Origin: an uncultured Pseudomonadales bacterium
GTDB taxonomy: Bacteria > Patescibacteriota > Microgenomatia > UBA1400 > MFAQ01
DNA: 64,000 bases
NCBI GenBank assembly: GCA_964439805.1
Contig: CAYTOI010000002.1
Coordinates: 47,489 to 111,488 of the forward strand
Reading direction: 5' to 3'
In this document: positions 11,545 to 50,377 of the stretch, in pieces
How the letters are laid out: each line of letters starts with the position of its first letter
How positions within the stretch are numbered: position 1 is the first letter of the stretch
Made by a program: the position numbers and the translations under genes
The notes under the pieces: generated by a model
What the model was told of the DNA's origin: nothing
What the model saw: only the letters and a program-made list of their open reading frames with translations
Databases searched by the model: none

Positions 11545-11573
11545 TTGACAGAATGCCTATAGTTTGATTATAT
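11545..11573 (+). promoter_or_regulatory. sigma70-like promoter TTGACA-17-TTATAT
   Basis: Consensus -35 at 11545-11550, 17-nt spacer, -10 TTATAT at 11568-11573; in divergent intergenic region. Confidence 0.45.
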
Positions 11574-11751
11574 GAGTACAGAGTTGCAGTAGAGAAAAAA
11601 TCTCAGGCGACCACAAACAATCAATAAATACATGACTCGTATTTTTTGGTGTAAGTGGCCGCTTTTTTGTTGGTTGGGATAAGGAAAAAACTTTATCCGA
11701 GCTAATAAGCTCGAAAGACAAAATTCTTGATATGGATTGTGTCGCAGAAGC

Positions 11752-11783
11752 GTAGGTGGTGGTCTGCCCTGGCTACCACCTAC
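11752..11783. promoter_or_regulatory. 9-bp perfect inverted repeat GTAGGTGGT-N14-ACCACCTAC in leader of HTH/rep operon
   Basis: Read directly; not followed by a U-run, so more likely operator/attenuator than terminator. Confidence 0.3.
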
Positions 11784-11815
11784 AAACAAAAAATTATTTA
11801 TTAAATCGAAAAATT

Positions 11816-12082
11816 ATGACAAATCTCGATATTTATTTAAGTTACTCCTTGGGAGCGAACGATATTCGTTTCCTTGAGTTACTACAAACTTTACCAAACT
11901 GTGAGTGGAGGGACAAGCAGACGGCATTAGCCATTGACCTACGCCTTCACAAAACCACAGTTAACGAAATGATTAAACGACTCAAGAAAAAGAAGTTGGT
12001 TCGAGTTAGAAAAACAAAAAAAAGTGTGCCCCTAGTTATCAAGCTTGGTTTGGAGCTAAGAAAGGAGAAAACAAATGGCTAA
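11816..12082 (+). CDS. small HTH transcriptional regulator (88 aa; MarR/wHTH-like)
   Basis: ...KQTALAIDLRLHKTTVNEMIKRLKKKKLV; ATG at 11816 preferred over GTG 11756, which lies in the hairpin. Confidence 0.45.
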   Translation: MTNLDIYLSYSLGANDIRFLELLQTLPNCEWRDKQTALAIDLRLHKTTVNEMIKRLKKKKLVRVRKTKKSVPLVIKLGLELRKEKTNG

Positions 12083-29921: not shown

Positions 29922-31220
29922 ATGTCAAAAAACACCGACCCAGATTTTGAAAAAGCTCTAAATATTTTGCTGCATAGTGAAGAACACGTTTTTCTCACAG
30001 GGAACGCCGGTACTGGTAAAACGACCCTCATCAACAAGTTCCAGTCAGAAACAGAAAAGGATCTGGCCATAGTCGCCCCTACCGGAGTAGCAGCCGTCAA
30101 TGTCGGGGGAGAAACCATTCATTCATTTTTTGGATTTCCCCCTAATGTAAATATCGATAGGGCCATTTTTGAAGCCAAAAAAACCAAAAAAGCCAAAATC
30201 TACCAAGCTCTCGAAGTTTTGGTTATCGATGAAATCTCTATGGTCAGAGCGGATCTGCTGGACTGCATCGATATCTTTTTGCAAACAGTTCGCAAAATGA
30301 GAGTTTCTTTTGGGGGAGTTCGCGTCATTATGGTGGGAGACTTACACCAGCTTCCACCAGTAGTTACTCCCACAGAAAGAGAAGCTCTTCTCAGTATGTA
30401 TAGTAGCCCCTACTTTTTCAGCTCTCACGTCTTTCAAAAATTAATGTCTGGTCTTTATACACAAATAATTTTTCTTGAGCTTCAAAAAATCTATCGTCAG
30501 ACTGATCTCAAATTTATCGATATTCTCAATCGCATTCGGACCAAAACTATTTTGCCAGAAGACTTAGACGTGCTAAATCGCTGCGTACTAGACTCTGAAA
30601 GTATCGACGAACATATTCTTTTGACCACCATCAACGACACTGCCGACAAGGTAAATGACATGCGACTAGCACAGATAGAAGGACCGCTGCATGTCTTTCA
30701 CGCCACTGTTACTGGTGACTTCTCTGAGAAGCAAAGCCCTGCCTCACAATCTCTATCTCTAAAAACAGGAGCCAAAGTAATGCTGCTGAATAATGACCCA
30801 GATGATAGATGGATCAATGGCACTATAGGAACCTTGTTCCGAGTATCCGGTGAAGAAGTCTATGTAAAACTAGAAAATGGAGAAATAGAAAAAGTTGAGC
30901 CGGTTACTTGGAACGCGTACAAAACTAGATTTAATGAAGAAGAAAACAAACTTGAATCATTTGATGTTGGTAGCTTTAAGCAGCTCCCTCTCAGGCTAGC
31001 TTGGGCAATAACTATTCACAAAAGCCAGGGAAAAACTTTTCAAAAAGTCGCCATCGACTTTGGCAGAGGCTCTTTTGCTCACGGGCAAACATATGTCGCT
31101 CTAAGTAGAGCCACAAGCTTAAGCGGATTAAAACTTTTAAGACCACTGACAGAATCCGGAATTATCGTCGACGAAACAGTTCTGCAATTTTTGGAAAATA
31201 TCAAGAAGCTATCCGCTTAA
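29922..31220 (+). CDS. PIF1-family (RecD-like) ATP-dependent DNA helicase
   Basis: Walker A LTGNAGTGKTT, VIDEISMV, GDLHQLPPV, ...ITIHKSQGKTF; start abuts stop of peptidase gene. Confidence 0.8.
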   Translation: MSKNTDPDFEKALNILLHSEEHVFLTGNAGTGKTTLINKFQSETEKDLAIVAPTGVAAVNVGGETIHSFFGFPPNVNIDRAIFEAKKTKKAKIYQALEVLVIDEISMVRADLLDCIDIFLQTVRKMRVSFGGVRVIMVGDLHQLPPVVTPTEREALLSMYSSPYFFSSHVFQKLMSGLYTQIIFLELQKIYRQTDLKFIDILNRIRTKTILPEDLDVLNRCVLDSESIDEHILLTTINDTADKVNDMRLAQIEGPLHVFHATVTGDFSEKQSPASQSLSLKTGAKVMLLNNDPDDRWINGTIGTLFRVSGEEVYVKLENGEIEKVEPVTWNAYKTRFNEEENKLESFDVGSFKQLPLRLAWAITIHKSQGKTFQKVAIDFGRGSFAHGQTYVALSRATSLSGLKLLRPLTESGIIVDETVLQFLENIKKLSA

Positions 31221-33001: not shown

Positions 33002-33540
33002 ATATTTTTGCCATAGATCTTTCAGTATCTCACTTAGTTCAAAGCTTTAACTCGACTTTAATTTACTCATTCTTATACTCAGTTTCTTACATAGGCAACG
33101 TAGTACCCATGTTCTTTATACTTTGCATCAGCCTAATTTATTTTTATTTTACTAAACACCGAAAGGCAGCTCTCTACTTATTTTTTTCTACCGGTATCGG
33201 AGTAGGCATAAGTACATTATTAAAAATAATAGTTGCCAGGCCTCGCCCCAGCTCTGAACTGGTTAATGTTTTTGTGAGACACAATGATTTTAGCTTTCCC
33301 AGTACTCACACCACCACCTTTGCCATTGTCTTTGGTTTTCTCTACTACTACTTAACAATTCACAACAAGAACAGCCATTACAACAAGCTTATTAGGTTAT
33401 TACTTTCAATTTTAATAATTTCCGTCGGTATTTCTAGAATCTATTTGGGAGCTCACTGGTTGAGTGATGTTCTGGCAGGCTACGCATTAGGCTTTTTTGT
33501 ATTATTTATTTCCCTCAAACAATTTAAAAATGAAAGATAA
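32998..33540 (+). CDS. PAP2-family phosphatase (undecaprenyl-diphosphatase/PgpB-like)
   Basis: KxxxxxxRP, SFPSTHT, SRxxxxxHxxxD (GISRIYLGAHWLSDVLAG). Confidence 0.8.
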   Translation: MNIFAIDLSVSHLVQSFNSTLIYSFLYSVSYIGNVVPMFFILCISLIYFYFTKHRKAALYLFFSTGIGVGISTLLKIIVARPRPSSELVNVFVRHNDFSFPSTHTTTFAIVFGFLYYYLTIHNKNSHYNKLIRLLLSILIISVGISRIYLGAHWLSDVLAGYALGFFVLFISLKQFKNER

Positions 33541-34399
33541 ATTTGCCGCCACTTGGATATCCCACACCTCAATTAGTGATTACTTGCTTTGCCCTAGGGG
33601 GTATTACCTAAAAAATGTTTACAAGGATCGCAGCACAGGGCACAAACTCCAGATCGTCAGTCCCGCTCTAGCATTGGGGTCGGCAGTTCATGGCGTGCTT
33701 GAAGGTCTGTCTCAAAAGCCAACCGAAACACGTTTGAAAGATTCGCTCGTTTTGGAGTTTGACAAAGTCTGGGAAAAATTTCAAGGCAAACTTGGTGGAT
33801 TCAAAAACAAAGAAGAGGAATATCAATACAAAGAAAGAGGCAAAGCCATGCTCAGGAGAGTCATGGAAAACCCAGGTCCAATAGGCAAGTTGTCTCTAAA
33901 ACTAAAACAAGACTTTCTCTATTACTGGCTAAACGAAGAGGACAATATTATTTTGTGTGGCAAAATTGACTGGCTAGAATATTTACCAGAAACAAATTCA
34001 GTGCATATTATCGACTTCAAAACAAGCAAAAAAGAAGAAAAGGCAAACTCTCTTCAGCTTCCAATCTATTTGTTACTTGCCCAAAACTGCCAAAACCGCA
34101 AAGTAGACAAGATGAGCTATTGGTATCTCGAATTTGATAACTTGCCTACTAGAGTAGAACTACCAAAGTTAGAAGAAGCTACTCAGACATTACTAGATAT
34201 TGGTCGAAAAATAAAACTAGCAAGAAAGTTAGATAACATGAAATGCCCTAACGGAGACGATGGCTGCTTCTCTTGCAGGCCACTAGAGATGGTCTTAAGA
34301 GGTGAAGGGGAAAAGGTAGGAGAGACAGACAGACATGATCTTTACTTCATCGAAAAAGCCCCAGTCGTTGAAGAAGAAATCGAAGAACTAATCCACTAG
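33530..34399 (+). CDS. PD-(D/E)xK nuclease, Cas4/RecB-like
   Basis: N-terminal Cys, IIDFKTSKK core, C-terminal CPNGDDGCFSC cluster; ATG 33530 preferred to 33497. Confidence 0.6.
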   Translation: MKDKFAATWISHTSISDYLLCPRGYYLKNVYKDRSTGHKLQIVSPALALGSAVHGVLEGLSQKPTETRLKDSLVLEFDKVWEKFQGKLGGFKNKEEEYQYKERGKAMLRRVMENPGPIGKLSLKLKQDFLYYWLNEEDNIILCGKIDWLEYLPETNSVHIIDFKTSKKEEKANSLQLPIYLLLAQNCQNRKVDKMSYWYLEFDNLPTRVELPKLEEATQTLLDIGRKIKLARKLDNMKCPNGDDGCFSCRPLEMVLRGEGEKVGETDRHDLYFIEKAPVVEEEIEELIH

Positions 34400-38645: not shown

Positions 38646-39413
38646 ATGTACACTCGAAAGACTTGGGGAACCTACACGCCAAACTCAAAAACTCCCTACA
38701 AAATTAGCAGATCCAAAATAGAACTCTTCCTAAACTGTCCTCGATGTTTCTACATGGATTGTAGATTAGGTTTGTCTCGACCCTCAACTCCTCCGTATAC
38801 GTTGAACAATGCAGTCGACAACTTGTTAAAAAACGAGTTTGACATTTTGAGAGAAAAAGGTGAAAAGCACGCGCTTGTAGAGAAATATGGCATAGACGCT
38901 GTTCCATTTAAACATTCAGAGTTAAAGCAATGGAGGGGAGAGGTAAAAGCATATGAGGGCGCACTAGTAGTGGACGAAAAATCAAATCTATTGATAAATG
39001 GCTTGGTCGACGATATCTGGCAAAATAAAGAAGGAGAATTAGTCATTGTCGATTACAAAGCCACCAGTACCACCAAGGCAATTTCTTTGGACGACGAATA
39101 CAAACAGAGCTACAAGAGACAGATGGAAATCTATCAATGGATCTTCCGAAAACTAGATTTTAAGGTTAGCAATATCGGCTATTTTGTTTTTGCCAATGCC
39201 ATAAAAGATAGAGAAAAGTTTGATGGAAAACTAGAGTTTGAAATGACCATAGTAGAGCACACAGGGAATTCAAGCTGGGTAGAGCTAACTCTTTTGGAAA
39301 TTGCCGAGTGTCTCAAAAACCCTAGAGTTCCAGCTCCCGCCCCAGACTGCGAGTATTGTACCTACAAACAATTCTCTGTCCAGGCAATGAGGGAAATTTC
39401 GGAAAAAAGTTAA
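38646..39413 (+). CDS. PD-(D/E)xK nuclease, Cas4/RecB-like (paralog of 33530-34399)
   Basis: LNCPRCFY N-terminal Cys pair, IVDYKATS core, C-terminal CEYC. Confidence 0.55.
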   Translation: MYTRKTWGTYTPNSKTPYKISRSKIELFLNCPRCFYMDCRLGLSRPSTPPYTLNNAVDNLLKNEFDILREKGEKHALVEKYGIDAVPFKHSELKQWRGEVKAYEGALVVDEKSNLLINGLVDDIWQNKEGELVIVDYKATSTTKAISLDDEYKQSYKRQMEIYQWIFRKLDFKVSNIGYFVFANAIKDREKFDGKLEFEMTIVEHTGNSSWVELTLLEIAECLKNPRVPAPAPDCEYCTYKQFSVQAMREISEKS

Positions 39414-40900: not shown

Positions 40901-42034
40901 CTAGATTTCTTGAGTTCTTCTTTCTCGTATCTCCTCCGCCAACCTGACCATAAACCTCACATTGTGTATCGAGGCCAATCGATAATAACTAAGTTCCTTA
41001 GCTCTGTACAAGTGCCTCAAATAGCTCCTAGAATATCCAGATGTACAGGTATAACAATCACACCCTTCCATAATCACCGATTTATCATTCTCATAAATTT
41101 TATTATCAATATTAAGTCGGCCGTTTTTGAACTCACTTTCAAACTTACCTCCTCTTATCTCTCCATAATAAAGAGCCCCATTGCGAGCTAATCTGGTGGG
41201 AGCAACACAGTCACACATATCTACTCCCGCCGCAAAGATATCAACCAAGTTTTGAGGGTCTCTCCCCAGTCCCATGGCATAAAGTGGTTTGTCTGCTGGT
41301 AGCAAATCCTTTATCCACTCAATCATTTCTAGTGTTCCTTCCATGTTGTACCCTACTGTCTCTCCTCCTAAGGCAATTCCCGAAAAGGGGAGGGAACAAA
41401 TAAATTTTGCCGACTCTCTACGCAACTCTTTATCCATAGCGCCTTGGATAATTCCAAACAGAGCTTGGTTTTTCCCTTGTGCACTTAGTTTATTGTTTTC
41501 TTCCCAGCGTTTTACTGATTGTTCTGCCCATCTATGAGTTCTGCCTAGTGCTTCTTTGGCATATGCACTTGTCGCTTCGTCTGGAGTGCATTCATCAAAA
41601 GCCATAATTATGTCCGCTCCCAAGTCTCTTTGAATATCTATAGAAATTTCTGGAGTAAATCTGTGCATTTTGCCATCCAAATGAGATTTAAAGGTGACAC
41701 CCTCTTCATCAATTTTGGCTAGTGGCTTGCCATTAGCTCCTTTACCAAGTGAAAAAACCTGAAATCCACCACTGTCGGTAAGCATGGGTTTATTCCAATT
41801 CATAAACTCAGTTACTCCACCCATTTCGCTCACTAATTTTTCTCCAGGGCGTAAAAAAAGATGATAAGTATTGGCTAAAATTATTTCTGCCTTTGTATTT
41901 TCAATATCGGCTACATCTAGAGCCTTGACTGTAGCTGCAGTACCCACTGGCATAAAAACAGGTGTGTTTATCTCTCCTCTGTCTGTGGTTATTACTCCAG
42001 TACCATCAATGTTTTTCTTAAAGCTAAAACTCAT
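40901..42034 (-). CDS. tgt: queuine tRNA-ribosyltransferase
   Basis: PVFMPVGTAATVKAL, zinc site CDCYTCTSGYSRSYLRHL; ATG 42034 chosen (ORF-track extension to 42064 runs into the tRNA). Confidence 0.9.
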   Translation of the reverse strand: MSFSFKKNIDGTGVITTDRGEINTPVFMPVGTAATVKALDVADIENTKAEIILANTYHLFLRPGEKLVSEMGGVTEFMNWNKPMLTDSGGFQVFSLGKGANGKPLAKIDEEGVTFKSHLDGKMHRFTPEISIDIQRDLGADIIMAFDECTPDEATSAYAKEALGRTHRWAEQSVKRWEENNKLSAQGKNQALFGIIQGAMDKELRRESAKFICSLPFSGIALGGETVGYNMEGTLEMIEWIKDLLPADKPLYAMGLGRDPQNLVDIFAAGVDMCDCVAPTRLARNGALYYGEIRGGKFESEFKNGRLNIDNKIYENDKSVIMEGCDCYTCTSGYSRSYLRHLYRAKELSYYRLASIHNVRFMVRLAEEIRERRTQEI

Positions 42035-42036
42035 GG

Positions 42037-42110
42037 AGCCGAAGGTCGGACTCGAACCGACCACCTGCTGTTTACGATACAGCTGCTCTACCAGATGAGC
42101 TACTTCGGCT
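42037..42110 (-). tRNA. tRNA-Thr (anticodon CGT), CCA encoded (42034-42036)
   Basis: Hand-folded: acceptor GCCGAAG/CTTCGGC, D GCTC/GAGC, anticodon stem GCTGT/ACAGC loop ATCGTAA, T GTCGG/CCGAC loop TTCGAGT. Confidence 0.8.
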
Positions 42111-42178
42111 TAAGGGTATTTTAACTGAAACTAGAGCCAAAGTGCTAAAATAGCGCATACTTTAAATTTGGAGGCTAG

Positions 42179-42537: not shown

Positions 42538-43200
42538 TTAAATTTTTGGCAAACTGAGCTTCAATCCACTAAATAGAATATTTGGATTCTTTCCAATCAC
42601 TGTTCTGTTTGCCCAGTATATCTTGGTCCACTTAAAACCATCTCCATAAGCGCGCACAGATATTGTCCAGAGAGAGTCACCCTTCAGTGTGGTGTAAGTA
42701 TCTACATCAATTGTTCCAGACTCTTTTGTTTTTGTCTCAACAGCAACCTCATTTTTTGGAGCAACTGCCTTAGCCTCTTCTTTTTCCATTACAGTAATCT
42801 TCTTTGCTTCTACTTTTGGCATCTTTAGTTCTTGCCCAACTTCTATATTTCCTTTGGCAGAAAGTTTGTTTTCCTTGATGATATCAACATAATTGTATCC
42901 AGACTTGTAGTATTTTTCTGAGATGTGCCAAAGATCATCCCCCTTAACTACTTTATAGGTATCTCCGCCCGGTAAATAGGCCTTTTTACTATCTTCAAGA
43001 GAAATTGTGGCTGGTTCAGTCTCAGAAAGTAGACTACCTTTCCAGATTTTTAAATTCGCTGTTTTGAAGTAATTTATCATCATTCCAGCCACCAAAAAAA
43101 CCACTACTATGCCCAGTAGCGTGCTAAAACGATCTTCGTTTACTTTGAAAAATTTTAGGATATCTTTTATCCTTGTATCTGAACTCTGTCCTTTATTCAT
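42538..43200 (-). CDS. membrane-anchored protein with two LysM domains
   Basis: YKVVKGDDLWHISEKYY... and YTTLKGDSLWTISVRAYGDGFKW...; N-terminal TM. Confidence 0.75.
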   Translation of the reverse strand: MNKGQSSDTRIKDILKFFKVNEDRFSTLLGIVVVFLVAGMMINYFKTANLKIWKGSLLSETEPATISLEDSKKAYLPGGDTYKVVKGDDLWHISEKYYKSGYNYVDIIKENKLSAKGNIEVGQELKMPKVEAKKITVMEKEEAKAVAPKNEVAVETKTKESGTIDVDTYTTLKGDSLWTISVRAYGDGFKWTKIYWANRTVIGKNPNILFSGLKLSLPKI

Positions 43201-43304
43201 AACTCCATCTTATATAGAAATATATAAATGTCAACAACTAGCCATGGAAGCAGGAAAATCCTATAGAATGGTGTAAAATATGCTATAGAAGAAATCCTTA
43301 ATAT

Positions 43305-43691
43305 TTGGAGGTAATTGTGGCAAATGAAGTTGATTTGACTATTGATGAGAAGAATGAAGCTTTGGACAAAATTTTAAGATATTTAAAACAGAATGCTCTT
43401 GAGAACATTAGTAGTAAGGTTGAAGATGGGATCGAGCATTATAGTGCTAGTTTTGTAGACCAAAAAAGTATAGGTTTTAGTTTTGTGTGTAGTGCATACA
43501 AAGACAACGGTCCAGAACACGGCCGGTTTGGTATTCGCATGGTTGATATAGCCATCAGCTGGGAAAGTTACTACACAGTTATCGAGTCTGGCGGCGGCGA
43601 GATATATAACAAAATCAGAGAACTTGTAGGCAGCTTGGCAACATATTGTCGCACCCACAACTTAGAAGCAAGAAGTCATCTCCTAGGCTAG
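43305..43691 (+). CDS. hypothetical protein (128 aa)
   Basis: ORF only. Confidence 0.45.
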   Translation: MEVIVANEVDLTIDEKNEALDKILRYLKQNALENISSKVEDGIEHYSASFVDQKSIGFSFVCSAYKDNGPEHGRFGIRMVDIAISWESYYTVIESGGGEIYNKIRELVGSLATYCRTHNLEARSHLLG

Positions 43692-43715
43692 TTTTAGTCA
43701 GTAGATAAATAAAGT

Positions 43716-43740
43716 CCCCCTCATTTGAGGGGGATTTTTC
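43716..43740 (+). terminator. rho-independent terminator
   Basis: CCCCCTCA-tt-TGAGGGGG + ATTTTT. Confidence 0.6.
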
Positions 43741-43743
43741 ATA

Positions 43744-43773
43744 GCCAGCCTGCTGGGACGATTTTTGAACCTA
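43744..43773. repeat. tRNA-Asp 3'-end-derived repeat, copy 1 (AGCCAGCCTGCTGGGACGATTTTTGAACCT)
   Basis: Alignment by eye with reverse complement of tRNA-Asp 3' end GCGAGGCTGATGGGATTCGAACCC and with copies 3-5. Confidence 0.5.
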
Positions 43774-43932
43774 CTTAAACTCAATTAAACCTACTCTAAA
43801 TCTCTCTATCTAGGCACAAATAGCCCTATAGCATAGACTTTTGAACAAATTCTTGGTATAATTAAGCACAATTGATATTGATTTTATCAATCGACGTGCA
43901 CCTTAAATTTATTCCAGACTCAGGAGAAACCC

Positions 43933-44553
43933 ATGAAATACAGACCATTTAAACCGTTTTTTAGTTGGCTTTACGAGTTGTACATTATGATCAGTTTGAA
44001 AAATCAAGGTTACGGTGAAGAGCTGGCAAGATCCGTGATCGGCTATAGTCCAAAAGATGTCCCCTATGTATACAGCACGGATCCAAGCTATCCAAATAAC
44101 GGCACGCTTAAGTCCGAACTTTGGATGGGATCAGTAGTCAGTAAGGAAGAGCTGGTAGGAGTATGGTCCGATCAAATTCCTGAGGTTATTGTCCAATGGC
44201 GAGGTCACACTCCCATCAAAGGCAGTGTTTGTGGCAAGAGAGAGGTCAACAGACTAGAAGTTCACCACTTAGGTGACGGTTCATTTGTTCAGCTTGAATT
44301 TCGGAATGTATCTGATACGGGAGCTTTTGACGGCAAGCTTAAATATTTGGACCTGTACAAGCTTAAAGAGGAAACTAATTATTCTGGAAAGCTGTGCAAA
44401 GAATACTCTATTCACAAAATTCACCGAGTTGGTGTAAGGTGGGTGGTTGACTTGGGATTTTCCAGCTTCTCAGGCACGACCATGCTCAATGCATGGCAGG
44501 AAATTCTGCAATTTCGGGTGAACACATACATGATCAAGCCAGACATCAAATAA
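43933..44553 (+). CDS. hypothetical protein (206 aa), cassette gene
   Basis: AGGAGAAACCC-ATG RBS. Confidence 0.5.
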   Translation: MKYRPFKPFFSWLYELYIMISLKNQGYGEELARSVIGYSPKDVPYVYSTDPSYPNNGTLKSELWMGSVVSKEELVGVWSDQIPEVIVQWRGHTPIKGSVCGKREVNRLEVHHLGDGSFVQLEFRNVSDTGAFDGKLKYLDLYKLKEETNYSGKLCKEYSIHKIHRVGVRWVVDLGFSSFSGTTMLNAWQEILQFRVNTYMIKPDIK

Positions 44554-44556
44554 TTT

Positions 44557-44778
44557 ATGGACGAAAAAAGGAGACTAATGTCAGCAACAGAAGAGTTCAT
44601 TCGTGTTATGGGATTTATATTGGGGCCGATTTTAACTCCAATTGTGTTTGTAGGCTCTGGGGTTGCGTTTACGGCCGATCAACCAAATTACACCCACACA
44701 GTTGTATTGTTTCTGATGGGTGTAGCAATGCTGGTAATTACAATTATCAGCCATTATGATTTTTGGAAGAAAAAGTAA
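44557..44778 (+). CDS. small membrane protein (73 aa, 2 TM)
   Basis: Hydrophobicity; starts 3 nt after previous stop. Confidence 0.4.
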   Translation: MDEKRRLMSATEEFIRVMGFILGPILTPIVFVGSGVAFTADQPNYTHTVVLFLMGVAMLVITIISHYDFWKKK

Positions 44779-44950
44779 AAAGTAGTAATGTAAAGACCTC
44801 ATCTCTAAAGATGGGGTCTTTTTTTAGACCAAAAAGTACATATCTAGCCACAAACACCCCATAACTAGACAATATGCAGGTCTATAGGTATAATACGCAC
44901 ATAGGATTAGTTTCTACTATTACATTCACAAAATATTGGAAGGAGTAAAA

Positions 44951-45307
44951 ATGGATTTAGCATCCGTAAGTGTCATATTGAATATTGTTATGGCGGTGGT
45001 TTCTCTCTATTATCGGAACATAAGAAGTTTGGAAGTAAATATAGTAAAATTTTTACTGGCAACAGGTCTATTTTTTGTTGCAGCTTTTAGAGGAGAGATA
45101 TTTTTTGAGATTTTTTGGGGAATACTAATGATTGGATTTCTTTTTGTTATCACTGGTTATCCAGGTGAGTCGAGTACGGTGACAAAAATTGAAGTTCAGG
45201 ATCAGATTCAAAATTCCAATGAGCAAAGCACCTATCAGTGCACACACTGCCAAACTTTCTCGAAAGAAAGGATTGGTACTTGTAAGTCATGCGGTGCTCC
45301 TCTTTAA
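44951..45307 (+). CDS. membrane protein with C-terminal zinc ribbon (118 aa)
   Basis: AAGGAG 6 nt before ATG 44951; 3 TM; CTHC...CKSC. Confidence 0.5.
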   Translation: MDLASVSVILNIVMAVVSLYYRNIRSLEVNIVKFLLATGLFFVAAFRGEIFFEIFWGILMIGFLFVITGYPGESSTVTKIEVQDQIQNSNEQSTYQCTHCQTFSKERIGTCKSCGAPL

Positions 45308-45322
45308 AAAGAATTAAACTTG

Positions 45323-45349
45323 CCCTCTTAATAAAAAGAGGGTATTTTT
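45323..45349 (+). terminator. rho-independent terminator
   Basis: CCCTCTT-aataaa-AAGAGGG + TATTTTT. Confidence 0.6.
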
Positions 45350-45429
45350 GTGCCAAAAATGCATGTTTTCACCACCAGTACACATACGCTAGGGGTATAC
45401 TTAGGAATAAAAATTAAGACGAGTCTTAG

Positions 45430-45449
45430 TGGACGATATTCGAACCCAA
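45430..45449. repeat. tRNA-Asp T-arm-derived fragment, copy 2 (TGGACGATATTCGAACCCAA)
   Basis: Shares TTCGAACCCA with tRNA-Asp (reverse-complement sense). Confidence 0.35.
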
Positions 45450-45540
45450 ATATACTCAAAATAGGCACAAAATAAAGCCTATAGGTTGAAAAAACTTGAG
45501 AAAGATGATAAGATACTCAATCTCAAACTAAGGAGTTATC

Positions 45541-45840
45541 ATGCAAACATTTAAATATCCGTGGGAAGACTGGCTTACTGCATTGATGCTCAGTCTGCGT
45601 CCTCGCCTTTATATCTACCGCAAGGGTGAGTACAAGAAAGTGGTCGGTCCTGCTCCGTTACTCAACAGTCTCAAAGGAGTTGGCGGTTACTTGGTTATCG
45701 GTGACCAAATTCAGATCGTCTCAGGTCTATACTTCTCAGGAACAAACGCTCTAGGTTCCAACGCTGTGAACGGCTGGACAATCAACGAGATGGAGACGGA
45801 TGCACTTGACGATTCTGACAAAAAGAAATTAGGGCTCTAG
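45541..45840 (+). CDS. hypothetical protein (99 aa), cassette gene
   Basis: AAGGAG RBS. Confidence 0.5.
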   Translation: MQTFKYPWEDWLTALMLSLRPRLYIYRKGEYKKVVGPAPLLNSLKGVGGYLVIGDQIQIVSGLYFSGTNALGSNAVNGWTINEMETDALDDSDKKKLGL

Positions 45841-45953
45841 CCCCCAAACACAAAGAGAAAATCTCCAAGTGCGAGGGGGATTTTCTTTGCCAAAAAAGTT
45901 TGTATCCCATATTTGGCCACAAAAAATCCCTCCACAAGGGAAGGATTTTTCAT

Positions 45954-45987
45954 GGCGAGCCTACTGGGACGATTTTAGAACTTTTAA
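45954..45987. repeat. tRNA-Asp 3'-end-derived repeat, copy 3 (GGCGAGCCTACTGGGACGATTTTAGAACTTTT)
   Basis: Preceded by hairpin + GATTTTTCAT exactly as copy 1. Confidence 0.55.
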
Positions 45988-46045
45988 ACTGCGCAAATGA
46001 GTTATATCTATTTACCTAATATGGCTCTGCTGATACATTTAAGTC

Positions 46046-47959
46046 ATGGCAGAAGTTCAAATAAACCACGAGGTTGAAACAGTAGAGTCGAGGCTAACTA
46101 GCAAATGCATTGACAAATATCTTGATTTTGCGATGGACAATGAGGTCAAATTTCAACACAACAAGGAAGAAATTAAAACACAAGTTCAGGAAATAATAAC
46201 AAAATTTCAAGTTGAACCAGCATTTTTTCGCTCTGTTTTTGGACTTGCAAGACCCATGCTTCTTTTGGGGGTTGCTGATAGATGGATCTCAGCCAAGAAT
46301 TTAGATGAAAAGAAGTATTTGGTTGATTATATGAAGGTTCTTTTTTCAAATGACTTTATCCAAAATACTGATATTGGTCTTGAATTTGGAAAAACTTTCT
46401 CTATAAAAGAAGAAGAAAAAGCGATAATGGGTTATTCTGGTTCCTACGAGTTTGCTTCTGGCTTGTCGACAATAGAATCTGTAAATAGAGAGGGCTGGAG
46501 GAAAAAAAGAGATTTTGCAAACGACGACAACAATACTGACCTAGAAAAAACCGCCTCGCTGATTAACGGGATTAGTATTGATAACCCAGATTCCCAATTA
46601 AGCATTATTCGTAATGAACTCGGTATAACAAAAGAAAACGAACAAGAGTTTAAAGTTAAAGTTTCAAAACTTACAAAGTCAGAAATGGCAAAAAAATTTA
46701 ACGGAACAATTGCTTTCCAAGTTGGTAGCTTGGTATACCTTCCAAATAATTTCAATCAAAGCCTGTTGGAGCATGAATATACTCACTCTCAACAGCTAAA
46801 ATTTAGCTTCGGAGGTGGTCGAGTACTTGGCTCAGCTTTAGGGGAAGCTTTAACAGAATACCAAGTTCAGAAGCCAAAGTATTATGGTGAAGTTAGAAAG
46901 GTTCTTAAAGAGATCGAAAAGGTAATACCAGGATTTATAAATGAACTTAAAGAGTATGGGGTGGTAAAAATAATCTCAAAAGGTGACAAGGTAGTTATGA
47001 AAATGATGCAAGGGTTAGGTGCCTCAACAGCAATTGATGCACTAGCCCTGGCACCAGTTAGCTCAAAGTCTAATATGGCGCAAAACTACTTCCATGGTGG
47101 TAGTTTTTTTAGGAGACCGTATGATGTTTACAAGTCAGTCCACGCATTAGTAGGGAAACAAACTATTGAACAGAAAGATGTAGATTTTAAGGTATTTTCT
47201 TCTCTAGATGCTGAAATATCAAAAGAGACAGAAAGCAAAAGGTTGCAGGCTCATGAAATAGTTGAAAAGTTAAGCGAAATAACTGAATTTGATAAAGTTA
47301 GTATTCAACTTGAAAAGATTATCAGGTTATGGCGAGCAAATAGAGAGGTAACCTCATACGAGTTAAGGAGTTTTATAGAGCAAGTCAGTAAAAAATTCCC
47401 GAACGACTATGAGCAGGTCAGTGAGGTAATATCAAAAACCCTTCTAAGTGATGCTTCGGGCAATAAATACTACTTTGAATCATTTGTAAAAGATCCAAAT
47501 TTAAACCTTATGCTAATTTTGTTAAATAATGATGATCAAAAAAGTAACGAATTTGTTCGCAACTTATATACTGATTTATTAAGAAAATCTTCAACTAGTA
47601 ATAACAGCCAAATTATTGACTATGTCTCGTCACTCAGTAGTTTTTCCACTCCTGAATTTTTCGCAATACATGGTACTGAAGCAATTAATATGGCTTTAGA
47701 GACATCCAAATCAAATCCTGAAGATCGGTATGTGTATTTATCCTTCATTGAAGAAGTCCTAAAAAAGAATCTATTGGATAGTTTGAAAACAGAGGATAGG
47801 TCGGTGGCAATAGAAAAGCTGCAGTCCATATATAACAACATTGTAAAAACGCCAAGTGACATGTTCAAGAAATACACCAAGCCAGAAGAACTAGAAAAAA
47901 TACTCGTTTCAATAAAACAAAAAAAGAAAGAAGTATTACATCAAATGCTCAGTGAGTAG
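46046..47959 (+). CDS. large hypothetical protein (637 aa) with zincin-like HExxH..QQ motif (DUF4157-like)
   Basis: LEHEYTHSQQ at ~aa 250; otherwise no similarity recognised; sole gene of its cassette. Confidence 0.5.
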   Translation: MAEVQINHEVETVESRLTSKCIDKYLDFAMDNEVKFQHNKEEIKTQVQEIITKFQVEPAFFRSVFGLARPMLLLGVADRWISAKNLDEKKYLVDYMKVLFSNDFIQNTDIGLEFGKTFSIKEEEKAIMGYSGSYEFASGLSTIESVNREGWRKKRDFANDDNNTDLEKTASLINGISIDNPDSQLSIIRNELGITKENEQEFKVKVSKLTKSEMAKKFNGTIAFQVGSLVYLPNNFNQSLLEHEYTHSQQLKFSFGGGRVLGSALGEALTEYQVQKPKYYGEVRKVLKEIEKVIPGFINELKEYGVVKIISKGDKVVMKMMQGLGASTAIDALALAPVSSKSNMAQNYFHGGSFFRRPYDVYKSVHALVGKQTIEQKDVDFKVFSSLDAEISKETESKRLQAHEIVEKLSEITEFDKVSIQLEKIIRLWRANREVTSYELRSFIEQVSKKFPNDYEQVSEVISKTLLSDASGNKYYFESFVKDPNLNLMLILLNNDDQKSNEFVRNLYTDLLRKSSTSNNSQIIDYVSSLSSFSTPEFFAIHGTEAINMALETSKSNPEDRYVYLSFIEEVLKKNLLDSLKTEDRSVAIEKLQSIYNNIVKTPSDMFKKYTKPEELEKILVSIKQKKKEVLHQMLSE

Positions 47960-47991
47960 TCCCATTTTTACATATCTGGACATGACTCACC

Positions 47992-48090
47992 AGGCTCGTT
48001 ACGAGACTAGTTCCGGCAGTTCGAATCCCATACCAACAAACTAAAAATCTCGGCACAAGGCCGAGACTTTTACTTGCGAGCCTGATGGGA
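47992..48090. repeat. ~100-bp repeat X (inverted T-arm fragment GTTCGAATCCCATACCA + hairpin/terminator module + att copy); paralog of 49781-49880
   Basis: Direct comparison: ...GTTCGTTACGA(G/A)ACT...GTTCGAATCC(C/T)ATACCAA(C/T)AAACTAAAAATCTCGGCACAAGGCCGAGACTTTTACTTGCGAG(C/G)CTGATGGGA. Confidence 0.6.
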
Positions 48091-48108
48091 CAATTTTAGA
48101 ACTTTTCC
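48076..48108. repeat. tRNA-Asp 3'-end-derived repeat, copy 4 (GCGAGCCTGATGGGACAATTTTAGAACTTTTCC)
   Basis: 15/16 identity with tRNA-Asp acceptor/T-stem segment. Confidence 0.6.
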
Positions 48109-48173
48109 AGCGCAAAACTAACAATTTCGCCAACAAAAAAACTCGCCCATTGCTGAACGAGTCTGTGACACCA

Positions 48174-48485
48174 TTATTTCGTTTCAGTTACTTCTTTCGA
48201 AACCTGGATTTGATTTGAGTACACACGCCAAAGCGTGTATTTCTTCCCTTTGTACTCAACTGTTGATCCATAGTCAGAGTTCTTTACTGGTAATTCATCG
48301 TAGTTTTTGTATTCAAGGTTCCATGTCGTTCGGGTCCCACCAACAAAAACATCCCACGAATTGTCACCTTCGACAAGGACAATATTCTTTGGCGATTCCT
48401 GGTCGTTGCTATGCATAAAGAATGGAACCAGCAATAAAGCTACCAAAATAGTCCCGACACACAATTCGAAAAGTCCAATTTTCAT
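48174..48485 (-). CDS. hypothetical secreted/membrane-anchored protein (103 aa)
   Basis: AGGAGAG RBS before ATG 48485; N-terminal TM. Confidence 0.45.
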   Translation of the reverse strand: MKIGLFELCVGTILVALLLVPFFMHSNDQESPKNIVLVEGDNSWDVFVGGTRTTWNLEYKNYDELPVKNSDYGSTVEYKGKKYTLWRVYSNQIQVSKEVTETK

Positions 48486-48505
48486 AATCTCTCCTGTCAG
48501 TATTT

Positions 48506-48796
48506 TTACCAAAACTTGATGTGAAGTGAGACAATGAGCGCCCACAACCCAAGATTGATGATAGCGGGTCCAAATGGCTCAAAATATGCATCTACAAAGC
48601 CAACCCACTCGCCGAATGCCAGCTTGTTTGCCAGGGAAAACATTCCCCAGTTTACGGAAAACAAAAGGATTAGTACACATAGCAGTGATTTCAAAGTGTT
48701 TGGCATCGGTATCGGTGTAATCATTCCAACCGCCAAGCCGACAATTATGTCAAGTAAAGCCAGTACTATAAAGAACTTTTTCAAGGTAGCCTCCAA
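48506..48796 (-). CDS. membrane protein (96 aa, 3 TM), TTG start within repeat
   Basis: GGAGGCTACC-TTG shared with gene at 49615. Confidence 0.45.
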   Translation of the reverse strand: MEATLKKFFIVLALLDIIVGLAVGMITPIPMPNTLKSLLCVLILLFSVNWGMFSLANKLAFGEWVGFVDAYFEPFGPAIINLGLWALIVSLHIKFW

Positions 48797-48880
48797 GCTA
48801 ACGAAATTAGATTTGAATAGGGAATTCTAGCACAAAACCACCCAAAAATCAACTACTATAGGATCAATGCGAGCCTAATG
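48781..48880. repeat. ~100-bp promoter/RBS-bearing repeat, copy a (includes att copy 5 and minus-strand promoter TTGATT-17-TAGAAT)
   Basis: ~85% identical to 49611-49710. Confidence 0.6.
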
Positions 48881-48900
48881 GGACGGTTTTAGTACTTTCT
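48869..48900. repeat. tRNA-Asp 3'-end-derived repeat, copy 5 (GCGAGCCTAATGGGACGGTTTTAGTACTTTCT)
   Basis: As above. Confidence 0.55.
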
Positions 48901-48967
48901 CAGCACGAAATCTTAAAATTTAGCCAATAAAAAGCCCTGAACCAATTATGGTCCAGGGCTTGTTTTC

Positions 48968-49615
48968 CTACTTGTAATTTTCTTCGCTTTCCTGTGTCAA
49001 TAGTTCCGAGAACAACAGCATCTCAATCATTTCTGGATCAGGATCTACACGACACCAACGATCTAAGGTATAACGAACCACCTTTTTTGATACAACGGGC
49101 TTTCCAACCATTTCTGGGGAGCTACCAATTTCCCTGAAAACAAAAGTGGCGTTATCTCTCCACTCAGGATGAGGTTCATGTGCCCACTCAGGATGATCTA
49201 CAAACGGTTGAAGTGCTGGGTAATAAGGGGGAGAGGTCAACGCACGAGCCCTAGCTATTCCAATCACGAATACATCCCTGGAGATGTACAACCCATCTCT
49301 TACCTTTCGGCAGTTGTGGATGTTCATAAGGCGCTGTTCTTCAGAATCAAATACATACTCTACAGCAAATTTCTTTGATAGAAATGCCTTTGCAGAGTCC
49401 ATATTAAAGGGGATCGGGTAGAAGGAAATCAATAATTCCTGAGACAAATGGCGCCGAATTTTTGTCGTATCCATAAGAACCTCAGAATCATTTGTTAATG
49501 AGTATGCAACGGTAATTCCTCCAGACTTATCAGATAAAACGATGTCGGCCTCAAACATGCGGGCTAGATCAATATCTTCTCTGAGATCATTCGAACTTGC
49601 AATAAATATTTTCAA
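48968..49615 (-). CDS. hypothetical protein (215 aa), TTG start within repeat
   Basis: GGAGGCTACC-TTG; ORF only. Confidence 0.45.
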   Translation of the reverse strand: MKIFIASSNDLREDIDLARMFEADIVLSDKSGGITVAYSLTNDSEVLMDTTKIRRHLSQELLISFYPIPFNMDSAKAFLSKKFAVEYVFDSEEQRLMNIHNCRKVRDGLYISRDVFVIGIARARALTSPPYYPALQPFVDHPEWAHEPHPEWRDNATFVFREIGSSPEMVGKPVVSKKVVRYTLDRWCRVDPDPEMIEMLLFSELLTQESEENYK

Positions 49616-49710
49616 GGTAGCCTCCTAGCTAATGAATTTAGATTTGAATGTCCAATTTTAGCACAAAACCATCCAAAAATCAACTACTATAGGATCAATG
49701 CGAGGCTGAT
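49611..49710. repeat. ~100-bp promoter/RBS-bearing repeat, copy b (includes att copy 6 GCGAGGCTGATG and promoter TTGATT-17-TAAAAT)
   Basis: See copy a. Confidence 0.6.
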
Positions 49711-49780
49711 GCTTGTCCACCTGTGGCGGAGGAGGATTCACCTTCGGTCGAACTACGTTCGCCTCAGGACCGGTCTCAGC

Positions 49781-49880
49781 AGGTTCGTTACGAAACTGCT
49801 TCCGACTGTTCGAATCCTATACCAATAAACTAAAAATCTCGGCACAAGGCCGAGACTTTTACTTGCGAGGCTGATGGGAT
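49781..49880. repeat. ~100-bp repeat Y (paralog of 47992-48090) including minus-strand terminator hairpin 49836-49862 downstream of tRNA-Asp
   Basis: See X. Confidence 0.6.
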
Positions 49881-49939
49881 TCGAACCCACGACCTTCTCC
49901 GTGACAGGGAGACGCGCTAACCAACTGCGCTACAGCCCC
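49866..49939 (-). tRNA. tRNA-Asp (anticodon GTC)
   Basis: Hand-folded: acceptor GGGGCTG/CAGCCTC, D GCGC/GCGC loop AGTTGGTTA, anticodon stem TCTCC/GGAGA loop CTGTCAC, T GTGGG/CCCAT loop TTCGAAT. Confidence 0.85.
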
Positions 49940-50095
49940 AACAAGCTATATTCTAAGGCCAAAAGACCATATTTGCCATACTAAAATGCGTATTGGCACA
50001 ATTTCTGTTAAAATACCCTTAGTTAAATCATCTTAACTTTTTAATTTGGTTCCCTGGTGATGATGGCCATGGGGTAAGCAAGAAAGGAGCCAGAA

Positions 50096-50377
50096 ATGGC
50101 TGTTCGTTTATACGTAGGGAATCTACCCTACAATATTACTCAATCTAGACTACAGGAGGTATTTTCACCTTTTGGAGCCCTTGGTGAAGTAACTGTTATT
50201 TCAGACAAGTTCTCAGGCAGAAGTAAAGGCTTTGGATTCGTAGAATTCGAAGACGCAGAAGCTGCTAAAAGTGCTATTGAAAAAATGAATGGTGCCGACC
50301 TCGATGGCCGCAACATCATCGTTAATGAAGCTCGACCAAAAGAAGAGCGCCCAGACCGATCATTCGGTGGACGCTAG
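50096..50377 (+). CDS. RNA-binding protein (single RRM domain)
   Basis: RNP2 LYVGNL, RNP1 KGFGFVEF; AAGGAG RBS. Confidence 0.85.
   Translation: MAVRLYVGNLPYNITQSRLQEVFSPFGALGEVTVISDKFSGRSKGFGFVEFEDAEAAKSAIEKMNGADLDGRNIIVNEARPKEERPDRSFGGR

Follow-up and report, generated by a model that had tools for sequence, protein, structure and literature searches.

Staphylococcal and enterococcal SCC elements use the 3' end of the housekeeping gene rlmH as attB, and short direct repeats that originate from this end divide the region into cassettes. In SCC composite islands, pseudo-SCC cassettes without a recombinase rely on large serine recombinases acting in trans, new units are placed beside the anchor gene, and Ccr recombinases are usually encoded in at least one unit. 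Integrons hold ordered small cassettes with short sites at a fixed insertion point, the newest beside that point, and the cargo of chromosomal integrons is largely ORFan; attC is an imperfect palindrome, and an intI gene and an attI/Pc arrangement are present. The pdif (Xer) modules of Acinetobacter plasmids carry one to three genes and lack a recombinase; host enzymes acting in trans mobilise them at ~28-bp sites (XerC/XerD, 11-6-11) that alternate in orientation. In Prochlorococcus, tycheposons integrate at tRNA 3' ends, each new integration displacing earlier elements further into the island (10.1101/2020.12.28.424599). Tandem integration leaves partial tRNA copies scattered inside these islands, the cargo of which is variable and adaptive, and the elements themselves, several kb or more in length, carry a tyrosine or serine recombinase and replication genes (10.1101/2020.12.28.424599).

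The window analysed here is a 64-kb stretch of DNA from an uncultured Collierbacteria (CPR) bacterium. We read a 6-kb interval within it, between a LysM gene and tRNA-Asp, as a tRNA-anchored composite island that would have formed by serial site-specific insertion of small, recombinase-less cassettes at the tRNA-Asp 3' end, and put the probability of this reading at roughly 0.55. The initial annotation had suggested such serial insertion. The checks that it proposed (alignment of the repeats to the tRNA-Asp 3' end, comparison of the locus among related genomes, a search for repeat and cassette as a unit elsewhere, and a search for a cognate recombinase) all gave favourable results, from which we infer recombination at a 27-bp site.

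Shared with tycheposons are the tRNA 3'-end anchor, the scattered partial tRNA copies and the variable cargo. In the reading proposed here, newer units would lie beside the anchor, as in SCC and integrons, and displace older ones, as in tycheposon islands. In contrast, the units here measure 0.4-2.2 kb, lack the hallmark genes, all use one 27-bp site with a diagnostic T-loop insertion and reside in a CPR host. As in SCC, a gene 3' end would provide the attB-like anchor, and direct repeats and recombinase-less cassettes are present, but the SCC anchor is rlmH rather than a tRNA, SCC units are much larger, and no Ccr-like gene was identified in the array. The array may be likened to an integron with no recombinase gene beside it, given its ordered, small, site-delimited cassettes at a fixed point and their largely ORFan cargo. 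Lacking, however, are intI and attI/Pc; the 27-bp site is not an attC-like palindrome, and the cassettes occur in both orientations with promoter-like sites of their own. As with pdif modules, short sites partition the DNA into modules of one to three genes without a recombinase, whereas the sites here are all direct, tRNA-derived and chromosomal, and lack XerC/XerD symmetry. The kind of island is not new, since tycheposons and SCC-type composite islands already provide examples of tRNA-anchored islands through which partial tRNAs are scattered. The earlier description of the array as unusual holds for its compact, integrase-less form, which is new.

The tRNA-Asp(GTC) gene was identified by ARAGORN on the minus strand at 49865..49939 (71.8 bits, Rfam tRNA). 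We propose that the array is anchored at the gene's 3' end (left on the plus strand), which would be its attB-like end. The repeat site (GCGAGnCTnnTGGGACGnTTTCnGAAC) has sharp boundaries and corresponds to the final ~22 nt of tRNA-Asp, with 4-5 nt inserted in the T-loop. Information content is 1-2 bits inside the 27 bp and ~0.1-0.6 bits just beyond position 27. The initial annotation noted an extension shared by the copies and absent from the tRNA; this is confirmed, though it stops at site position 27 (GAAC). The T-loop insertion is common to all site copies, and the copies thus descend from one att type. The 15-nt tRNA-Asp 3'-end consensus GCGAGsCTnnTGGGA recurs in direct orientation at 43744, 45955, 48076 and 48869. 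Exact matches to the 15-nt sequence GCGAGSCTNNTGGGA are found at 45955, 48076, 48869 and 49865 (the last being tRNA-Asp itself), along with one at 43744 with a single mismatch; when up to two mismatches are allowed, the single further match is at 8587 (two mismatches). The first 15 nt of a 24-mer initially quoted as recurring do recur, but the full 24-mer does not, even with 3 mismatches. None of 100 shuffles reaches six matches to GCGAGSCTNNTGGGA (shuffle mean 1.18), and a site profile recovers four window copies at E = 1e-8 to 1e-9, with no copies outside the tRNA-Asp-LysM interval in the whole 64 kb. By both measures the match of the repeats to the tRNA-Asp 3' end is far above chance, and the array is confirmed. 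Secondary partial copies were not identified for tRNA-Gly and tRNA-Thr, the window's other two tRNAs, which served as controls.

All site copies in the window are in the same orientation, as first described. On the plus strand, they are site C (GCGAGCCTAATGGGACGGTTTTAGTAC, 48869..48895, 27 bp, profile score 34 bits), site D (GCGAGCCTGATGGGACAATTTTAGAAC, 48076..48102, 27 bp, 35 bits, repeat family D2), site E (GCGAGCCTACTGGGACGATTTTAGAAC, 45955..45981, 27 bp, 37 bits), a degenerate copy (GACGAGTCTTAGTGGACGATATTCGAAC, 45418..45445, 7 bits), and site F (GCCAGCCTGCTGGGACGATTTTTGAAC, 43744..43770, 27 bp, 31 bits), which is partly decayed and farthest from tRNA-Asp. The degenerate copy had been taken for a T-arm-only fragment at 45430 and is instead a full copy. 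The lowest scores belong to the two copies nearest LysM, without a strictly monotonic trend (43744 at 31 bits, 45418 at 7 bits). Dyad symmetry is not obvious in the 27-bp site. Three unrelated classes of left arm can be distinguished among the sites, a diversity that fits poorly with a recombinase requiring two conserved half-sites.

Each cassette has the 27-bp att-like site as its left (tRNA-distal) edge and comprises a promoter-like site, one to three mostly ORFan genes and a terminator, making it a self-contained transcription unit. Promoter-like sites lie upstream of each cassette unit, terminator-like sites number 20 in the array (5.7 +/- 2.4 expected), and leader motifs and a leader backbone were found in the array only. 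The interval ORFs have no recombinase match in Pfam, PHROG or PADLOC, in agreement with the initial annotation of one to three ORFs per interval and no integrase. The conserved far anchor (42538..43691) consists of a minus-strand LysM gene (42538-43200) and, on the plus strand, a 128-aa ORF (43305-43691) shared with the related genome L001. Of the plus-strand cassettes, the one nearest LysM encodes ORFans of 206 aa and 73 aa (43933..44778; promoter-like site 43834-43862). It is followed by a 123-aa ORF (44936..45307) with a membrane segment and a zinc-ribbon-like C-terminus; its promoter-like site (44866-44894) and terminator (45321-45344) are present, and its left-hand site has been lost. The degenerate site heads a 99-aa ORF (45541..45840), the C-terminal domain of which is common to a 232-aa ORF of the L001 array, and this cassette is homologous to the L001 cassette beginning at site 3872 (window 45431-45570, L001 3884-4028). 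A 637-aa ORF (46046..47959) has no Pfam match; invariant HExxH...E residues characterise the rare family of which it is a member.

On the minus strand, two small membrane ORFs (listed lengths 123 aa and 96 aa; 48174..48796) are headed by a promoter/RBS element (48778..48868; -35 TTGATT, -10 TAGAAT) that adjoins site C. A paralogous second copy (49609..49699, minus strand) drives a 215-aa ORF (48968..49615, minus strand); these heads form repeat family D4 (48778-48880 and 49609-49711, 89% identical). The N-terminal region of the 215-aa ORF is common to a 165-aa ORF of L001 (BLASTP), and beyond ORFs of L001 and the related genome L069 no homologue was identified among 5.8 billion proteins. By eye only, the start of the 267-aa ORF of L069 (8500-9303) resembles that of the 215-aa ORF.

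The second promoter head adjoins module a (49700..49864, plus strand, 90.3 bits), which in turn adjoins tRNA-Asp. Its left end is a 12-nt tRNA 3'-end copy (GCGAGGCTGATG, 49700-49711). Next come a 20-nt hairpin at 49712-49731, which is optional, and the three-way-junction core at 49733-49820; a bidirectional terminator occupies 49837-49855. A repeat copy had been reported at 49699; the 12-nt match is there, but it is the left end of this different, ~165-nt element rather than a full copy. Module b (47954..48075, plus strand, 44.2 bits), inside the array, is a 5'-truncated copy with a terminator at 48048-48066. The initial annotation correctly identified these two ~100-bp modules as paralogous (47975-48090 and 49764-49879, 88% identical) and noted their inverted T-arm fragments, which we read from the sequence at 48021-48037 and 49811-49827. 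The modules are a separate family of three-way-junction elements with strong covariation, which lie beside the 3' ends of tRNA genes for Asp, Thr and Ser. The non-coding ~90-nt core, with a tRNA 3'-end copy and terminator alongside, usually lies between array and tRNA-Asp. Site D has as its upstream neighbour the same module 3' part and terminator as are found directly before tRNA-Asp, as the serial-insertion reading predicts where a later insertion has moved an earlier flank away from the tRNA. Thus, module b, like internal module copies generally, may be read as a former tRNA-proximal flank.

In at least four other Collierbacteria lineages, the interval from LysM to tRNA-Asp is likewise a site-delimited array, with cargo of mostly unrelated ORFans. 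Different cassettes were identified at this locus in L001, L038, L059-61 and L054 (LysM identity among genomes with sites is 67-75%). L058 has different genes and a module there, with no secondary site, and L070 and L073 have LysM, one small gene and tRNA-Asp, with neither repeat nor module. The span of tRNA-Thr, LysM, small gene and tRNA-Asp is 1.1-1.5 kb in L070 and L073, compared with 7.76 kb for the same span in the window. Relatives with different cassettes or none at this spot suggest a gene-capture hotspot.

Homology between genomes begins or ends exactly at the site. A segment shared by L038 (2775-3399) and L059 (2847-3471) is 84.8% identical over 625 nt, with homology from the exact site start, a first 42 nt (site + 15 nt) that is 100% identical, and unrelated left neighbours; here repeat and cassette occur together as a unit. 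An internal duplication in L038 (2360-2709 and 4427-4778, 96%) also starts at the first base of a site and has unrelated left flanks. At window 48869 and L001:3872, the sequences left of the site are 95% identical (the 48778..48868 head region matches L001:3782-3888), and those on its right are unrelated. Site E is identical at 26 of 27 positions to a site at 9241 in L059, a distant relative, and the cargo is unrelated. The right-hand ends of common segments lie near gene starts rather than at sites, and thus other recombination probably also shuffles cassettes. In three relatives (L001, L038, L059) the site closest to LysM has the lowest score or has disappeared, and the cassettes common to several genomes are the LysM-proximal ones (families 4 and 7). 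No circular or excised form was recovered, nor were any two near-identical strains whose difference is exactly one cassette.

Some of these features could reflect modular exchange by homologous recombination after DNA uptake, with no site-specific recombinase or circle. Cassettes would be swapped, duplicated or deleted through conserved junction pieces (the 27-bp site, ~100-nt promoter heads, terminators and the module) serving as portable homology patches. We consider this unlikely, although junction pieces of 90-115 nt are 88-95% identical within and between genomes, some homology tracts stop at gene starts instead of sites, and no recombinase lies inside or beside any array. Several pairs share only the 27-bp site at the breakpoint, with homology from its first base, which is very short for RecA-dependent exchange. 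Such exchange also does not account for tRNA-derived sequence kept near-unchanged across species amid diverged surroundings, for the co-orientation of the copies, for site decay that tends to rise away from the tRNA, or for recombinase-bearing elements that end at the same nucleotide.

Less probable again is that the array is fossil debris. Larger integrase or serine-recombinase elements (prophages or islands) would have inserted in tandem at tRNA-Asp and been deleted down to att scars and a few genes, with nothing mobile today. In relatives, tRNA-Asp does serve as an integration point for large-serine-recombinase elements (at least 6.8 kb), decay is evident in the degenerate sites, the lost site and the truncated module, and tycheposon islands hold such remnants (10.1101/2020.12.28.424599). 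However, no recombinase fragment or phage-like gene was identified in five arrays, and every unit is a tidy promoter-gene-terminator package with the array-only leader backbone. Debris is also difficult to reconcile with the same cassette and site in differing neighbourhoods, or with near-perfect 27-bp sites kept beside unrelated cargo between species at ~87% core nucleotide identity or less. The conserved block lies in untranscribed spacers, with a terminator on one side and a promoter on the other, as might a cis element (an insulator, regulator-binding or processing signal) that spreads with promoter/terminator units and resembles the tRNA incidentally. This we consider very improbable: 15 consecutive nt of the tRNA end are matched, plus the T-loop remainder, and the block is confined to the tRNA-LysM stretch, coincides with homology breakpoints and is absent from promoters elsewhere in the window.

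In serial insertion at tRNA-Asp, a circular cassette or multi-cassette segment would recombine with the tRNA-Asp 3' end through the first few bases of its site (GCGA/GCGAG), which both sequences have in common, and the tRNA would remain intact. The newest cassette would settle beside tRNA-Asp, and older ones would be shifted towards LysM, where their sites would decay; internal module copies would mark earlier tRNA-proximal flanks. The recombinase would be supplied in trans. No recombinase gene was identified in any array (window and L038 ORFs by Pfam; L001 and L059-61 by precomputed Pfam records). The sole recombinase among window ORFs of at least 150 aa (64 kb) is a large serine recombinase 30 kb from the array, just 21% identical to the tRNA-Asp-associated one of relatives. 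The latter, a 523-aa large serine recombinase, was identified in L005 and L067, in elements that end at exactly the same tRNA-Asp nucleotide; their far junction was looked for and not found. This family is the sole candidate seen at the array attachment point, and its link to the 27-bp-site array is circumstantial. In L062, a recombinase 73% identical to the tRNA-Asp-associated one adjoins tRNA-Asn; L005, L067 and L062 are all of the same genus.

The window is a segment of bacterial chromosome with a GC content of ~39%, and its housekeeping genes include those for pyruvate kinase, QueA, TGT, GatCAB, an ABC-F ATPase, DnaE and L19, along with a glycosyltransferase operon. The local order is TGT, tRNA-Thr (42034-42109, minus strand), a 98-aa ORF, a LysM protein gene (42538-43200, minus strand), the array interval, tRNA-Asp (49865-49939, minus strand, identified by ARAGORN) and the gene for an RRM protein (50096-50377). 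Homologues of the LysM protein carry the source name Candidatus Collierbacteria (Microgenomates, CPR). The same sequence is also contained in run SRR12487046. A 20-nt inverted repeat (TTTCWGTTAAAATACCCTTA), its arms 95% complementary, lies just upstream of tRNA-Thr (42111-42130) and upstream of the RRM gene (50002-50021); it is also present in L001, a contig of a related genome, and is probably a shared extended -10 promoter. Genes for two PD-(D/E)XK (Cas4-like) nucleases (33497-34399 and 38646-39413) and a PIF1-like helicase (29922-31220) occur at most 20 kb upstream of the array.

The first 15 nt of the tRNA-Asp end recur as direct copies at 48869, 48076, 45955 and 43744 (the last with one mismatch). 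This count was equalled by no shuffled sequence, and a profile built from the site copies recovers those in the window with E = 1e-8 to 1e-9, so that the repeats reported in the initial annotation are real. The whole 24-mer given there, however, is found in the tRNA alone, with no second copy in the window when three mismatches are allowed. What had been read as a T-arm-only fragment at 45430 is a degenerate copy of the full site, and the supposed copy at 49699 extends over 12 nt only and is part of a different element, a ~165-nt non-coding module beside the tRNA. The profile finds no further site in the rest of the 64-kb window, and the window's other two tRNAs (tRNA-Gly and tRNA-Thr) have no partial copies.

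Alignment of 14 non-redundant copies from four genomes defines a conserved block of 27 bp with sharp edges, GCGAGnCTnnTGGGACGnTTTCnGAAC. Information content directly to its right is 0.1-0.6 bits, its left flanks sort into classes, and the flanking sequences are class-specific terminators or promoters. The tRNA-Asp counterpart reads GCGAGGCTGATGGGA----TTCGAACCC; the block thus equals this 3' end plus an insertion of 4-5 nt (CGAT) in the T-loop. Because the copies have in common both the tRNA end and this insertion, all derive from one att-type sequence, as had been proposed. Some keep extra tRNA-like bases (...TTCGAACACCAC at L001:3872 and ...TTCGAACCCA in the degenerate copy at 45418). All sites are co-oriented; by inspection of the site alignment, the block has no dif-like or attC-like dyad symmetry, and the 11-6-11 symmetry of XerC/XerD sites was not seen. 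An origin by tandem duplication and decay of the tRNA gene is ruled out, as the copies comprise only the 3' ~22 nt and 5' tRNA sequence never recurs. A 22-nt degenerate pattern of the site matched 40 loci in GTDB genomes, all by chance and in unrelated, mostly GC-rich taxa, except for one contig (L038); the two matches in IMG/VR are chance occurrences in coding DNA with 48-58% GC, and a 27-nt pattern had zero matches in JGI metagenomes.

Each interval between sites encodes one to three ORFs. Genes occur on both strands, and each unit has promoter-like and terminator-like sites, the former upstream of the unit on the matching strand. Terminator-like hairpins in the array number 20, against 5.7 +/- 2.4 expected. 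The 27-bp sites occupy the spacers, with a terminator on one side and the next promoter on the other. Within the window, the leader motifs TAGGCACAAAA and CTATAGGWTSAA are essentially restricted to the array, and therefore the cassettes have a common backbone besides the site. Matches to Pfam, PHROG and PADLOC were not identified for any cassette ORF of the window. A 215-aa cassette protein found only itself among 5.8 billion proteins, and a 637-aa protein (46046-47959, plus strand) belongs to a rare family with 54 hits in 1.8 billion representatives. In this family H243, E244, H247, E267 and E271 are invariant (HExxH...E, gluzincin-like). The 637-aa protein, which has no Pfam match, is possibly an undescribed metallopeptidase.

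Related genomes have the same flanks with different contents. L001, from wastewater, encodes an identical RRM protein, has ~87% core nucleotide identity and shares both flanks, and its array has five sites and one degenerate copy with mostly unrelated genes. L038 (CAYSAM010000011.1), a GTDB MAG contig, has at least five sites and runs past the end of the locus. The contigs L059-61 (Collierbacteria RIFOXYD1_FULL_40_9 and relatives; LysM protein 67% identical) have three sites, one of which is identical to the window site at 45955 at 26/27 positions and adjoins unrelated cargo. One relative (L054) has a weak, degenerate site plus the module, two (L058, L069) have a short interval with other genes, and in two more (L070, L073) only 1.1-1.5 kb separate tRNA-Thr from tRNA-Asp, with LysM and one small gene between (in L070 additionally the 98-aa ORF) and neither repeat nor module. 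The polymorphism in content and presence that the initial annotation proposed to look for thus exists, with different cassettes in L001, L038 and L059-61 and none in L070 and L073. Many metagenome contigs break at tRNA-Asp, which would fit strain heterogeneity. L038 is titled 'uncultured Pseudomonadales bacterium' but has low GC and Collierbacteria synteny (TGT, tRNA-Thr, LysM, array); a binning or labelling error is probable.

A DUF6624 cassette is common to L038 (2775-3399) and L059 (2847-3471), with 84.8% identity. Homology begins at the first base of the site, the initial 42 nt are identical, and the left neighbours are unrelated. The start of an internal duplication in L038 (96%, 353 nt) is also the first base of a site. 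The window copy at 48869 and L001:3872 are 95% identical from ~100 nt leftward through the site and unrelated rightward. Thus, the site is a junction at which left and right sequences assort independently. The right-hand ends of shared tracts are often at gene starts, so other recombination operates too. A variant site (GCGACCCTTACGGGATGCG...) moves together with its cassette and resembles the 3' terminus of another tRNA or allele. The variant GCGACCCTTACGGGATGCGTTCAGCAACC, which has this resemblance too (acceptor AAGGGTC), heads the DUF6624 cassette in both L038:2726 and L059:8354 (both minus strand), a hint that cassettes may pass from an array at one tRNA to an array at another.

The copy nearest LysM has the lowest score or has been lost in L001, L038 and L059, and the two nearest copies score lowest in the window, where the order is not strict. 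Cassettes common to several genomes are those beside LysM (families 4 and 7). The site at 48076 is preceded by the 3' part of the module and a terminator, as before tRNA-Asp (88% identity), as would result from a later insertion that pushed the former flank away from the tRNA. The score gradient, the sharing on the LysM side and this flank fit accretion at the tRNA end.

Two paralogous ~100-bp modules had been noted within the array. They are true copies, but of the separate ~165-nt non-coding unit, present beside tRNA-Asp (49700-49864) and truncated at 47954-48075. The unit begins with 12-20 nt copied from the tRNA 3' end; an optional hairpin (20 nt), the ~90-nt core and a bidirectional terminator follow in this order. 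The core is predicted to fold as a three-way junction, in which stem A, a copy of the T-stem/loop (GGGATTC) paired with the inverted GAATCCC fragment seen earlier, surrounds two hairpins, one with a conserved CGTTACG apex. When 14 copies are aligned with plain MAFFT, the paired cells amount to 89.8% (75.1 +/- 1.2 when shuffled) and compensatory changes affect 16/25 pairs and 57 cells (18 +/- 3.7 when shuffled; 0/500 shuffles reach the observed level), and shifted registers reduce pairing to 23-57%. A model-guided alignment of 21 distinct copies gives 20/25 compensatory pairs. The plus strand has 17 G-U and 8 A-C pairs, a weak hint that the structured strand is the one antisense to the tRNA. 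A covariance model places the module beside the tRNA-Asp 3' end in most relatives, as well as at tRNA-Thr (L072, L075) and two tRNA-Ser genes (L062). In every case it is convergent with the adjacent tRNA, which stem A matches; tandem copies occur in L069 and L075. Within the window, the model matches only 49733-49820 and the truncated 47954-48031.

Rfam reports only tRNA above threshold, and nothing relevant at E up to 10 over 43600-50100. The module is not a tRNA or tmRNA (ARAGORN and Rfam were negative and anticodon-loop geometry is not visible), nor is its 5' end a retroelement primer-binding site, as the tRNA-Asp copies lack the TGG needed to pair with CCA. Possible roles are those of a miniature integrative element, a folded recombination site and a small RNA. 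At tRNA-Ser(GGA) in L062 (12290-12475), a ~55-nt direct repeat made up of the terminator and the tRNA's final 20 nt (encoded CCA included) flanks the module, whose H1 hairpin region (ctcagcaggttcgttacgaaactgcttccgact) reads the same as in the tRNA-Asp module of the window.

The window, L001, L038 and L059-61 have arrays that encode neither a recombinase nor a replication/hallmark gene, and none of the window ORFs of at least 150 aa matches Phage_integrase. The sole recombinase among those ORFs is a 556-aa large serine recombinase (14663-16333, plus strand; Resolvase, Recombinase and Zn_ribbon_recom domains), 30 kb from the array, within or bordering a stretch of hypothetical genes with low GC (0.32-0.37) at ~7-17 kb that is probably an integrated element. 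We rejected it as the cognate enzyme, since its identity to the recombinase found at tRNA-Asp in L005 is only 21% and neither site nor module is nearby. The RRM/tRNA flank of L005 and L067 matches that of the window lineage. Both have a gene for a 523-aa large serine recombinase whose stop codon falls within the tRNA-Asp 3' end, and the element directly adjoins the same base at which the site starts. The tRNA-Asn genes of L062 and L063 are abutted likewise by a 73%-identical recombinase. This family has thousands of relatives, the few source-named ones being mostly CPR; the L005 recombinase has none in IMG/VR. The L067 contig stops within the element, and no displaced tRNA-Asn 3' copy was found within 6-10 kb of the elements in L062 and L064 (seven errors in 25 nt allowed). 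The tie between these recombinases and the 27-bp site is circumstantial, because the far junction of the elements was not recovered. In L064 (Collierbacteria RIFOXYB2_FULL_46_14; 11560-11860), the tRNA-Asn adjoining a frameshifted serine recombinase gene has a ~230-nt intron-like insertion in the anticodon-loop region, and ARAGORN makes no call for it.

The most economical account of the locus is a composite island formed by serial site-specific insertion at the tRNA-Asp 3' end. This is the interpretation of the initial annotation, and the tests proposed there support it. Crossover would occur within the first bases of the site, leaving the tRNA untouched and each cassette with its own site variant, and the recombinase would be supplied in trans. 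Such an island may work as do tycheposon islands and SCC composite islands with recombinase-less units. It is possible that homologous recombination through conserved junctions exchanges cassettes, and possible too that the array reflects simple decay of larger elements. We rate both lower because they leave unexplained the cross-species conservation and co-orientation of the sites, their sharp boundaries and the tidy unit structure. A wider reading of serial insertion, to which we give about one chance in four, is that Collierbacteria, and perhaps other CPR, have an integron-like capture platform unlinked to an integrase. The 3' end of a tRNA gene may serve as attI and the 27-bp sequence as the site of promoter-equipped ORFan mini-cassettes. 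The module, in this reading a previously undescribed three-way junction whose outer stem copies the cognate T-arm, may participate in recombination or help to control it, acting either as a single strand in folded form or as a small antisense RNA against the tRNA end.

By analogy, the logic of the locus resembles that of integrons and pdif modules. Integrons have an intI tyrosine-recombinase gene adjoining the array, with attI and Pc; no intI adjoins this one (no Phage_integrase in window ORFs of at least 150 aa). Their attC sites are imperfect palindromes of 57-141 bp with R''/L'' and L'/R' boxes at each cassette end, whereas the block here is 27 bp and lacks dyad symmetry. Integron cassettes are mostly promoterless, in a single orientation and read from Pc; those described here lie on both strands with their own promoter-like and terminator-like sites. 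The pdif sites of Xer systems are 28-bp XerC-spacer-XerD sequences with partial dyad symmetry and alternating orientation, unlike the co-oriented sites of the array, in which an 11-6-11 symmetry is not visible. In SCC, a large serine recombinase (Ccr) catalyses integration at the rlmH 3' end. Here the anchor is tRNA-Asp and a Ccr-like gene is absent from the array; related serine-recombinase elements target tRNA genes. The likeness to SCC composite islands is an analogy of architecture only: direct repeats of the anchor 3' end separate units, recombinase-less ones included. In tycheposon islands, integration at tRNA 3' ends leaves partial tRNA repeats and tandem accumulation (10.1101/2020.12.28.424599). 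The array is alike in its partial tRNA-Asp direct repeats flanking units, its tandem accumulation and its variable content among relatives. It differs in that the arrays of the window, L001, L038 and L059-61 lack recombinase and replication/hallmark genes, a serine-recombinase element being present at the attachment point only in L005 and L067. The locus thus lacks what defines each known system, with no linked integrase, attC/dif structure or hallmark genes, and a different anchor. The phenomenon as such is known; in the literature searched, neither its minimal form in a CPR genus, with a 27-bp site and no integrase, nor the structured element at the tRNA flank seems to have been described.

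The genomes of CPR bacteria are tiny and are believed to hold few classical mobile elements, which raises the question of how strain-specific genes are acquired. The locus is a compact, ordered hotspot in which ORFan genes turn over between species as the flanking core stays syntenic, and it yields a precise 27-bp site and a candidate recombinase family. If a recombinase acting in trans does move the cassettes, this would be a minimal gene-capture system distinct from integrons, with the 27-bp site and the tRNA end as a ready-made att pair. The tRNA-flank module adds a new candidate motif, of non-coding RNA or of DNA, whose covariation is unusually clear.

The 5' side of tRNA-Asp has insertions of its own in some relatives. 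One of ~100 nt occurs in L002 (731-830), L005 (3609-3710), L008 (410-510) and L006 (890-975), and is absent from the window and L001. It is bounded by a repeat of AGCCCCAA and contains an incomplete tRNA 5'-end copy, which the 20-nt hairpin of the 3' module (CTTGTCCGCCTGTGGCGGAG) interrupts, and two further hairpins. A gene for a GIY-YIG endonuclease (80-86 aa) lies between tRNA-Asp and the RRM gene in L006 (629-889), L059 and L061 (5893-6135) and L060 (2681-2923); in L006 the real tRNA is on one side of it and the partial 5' copy on the other.
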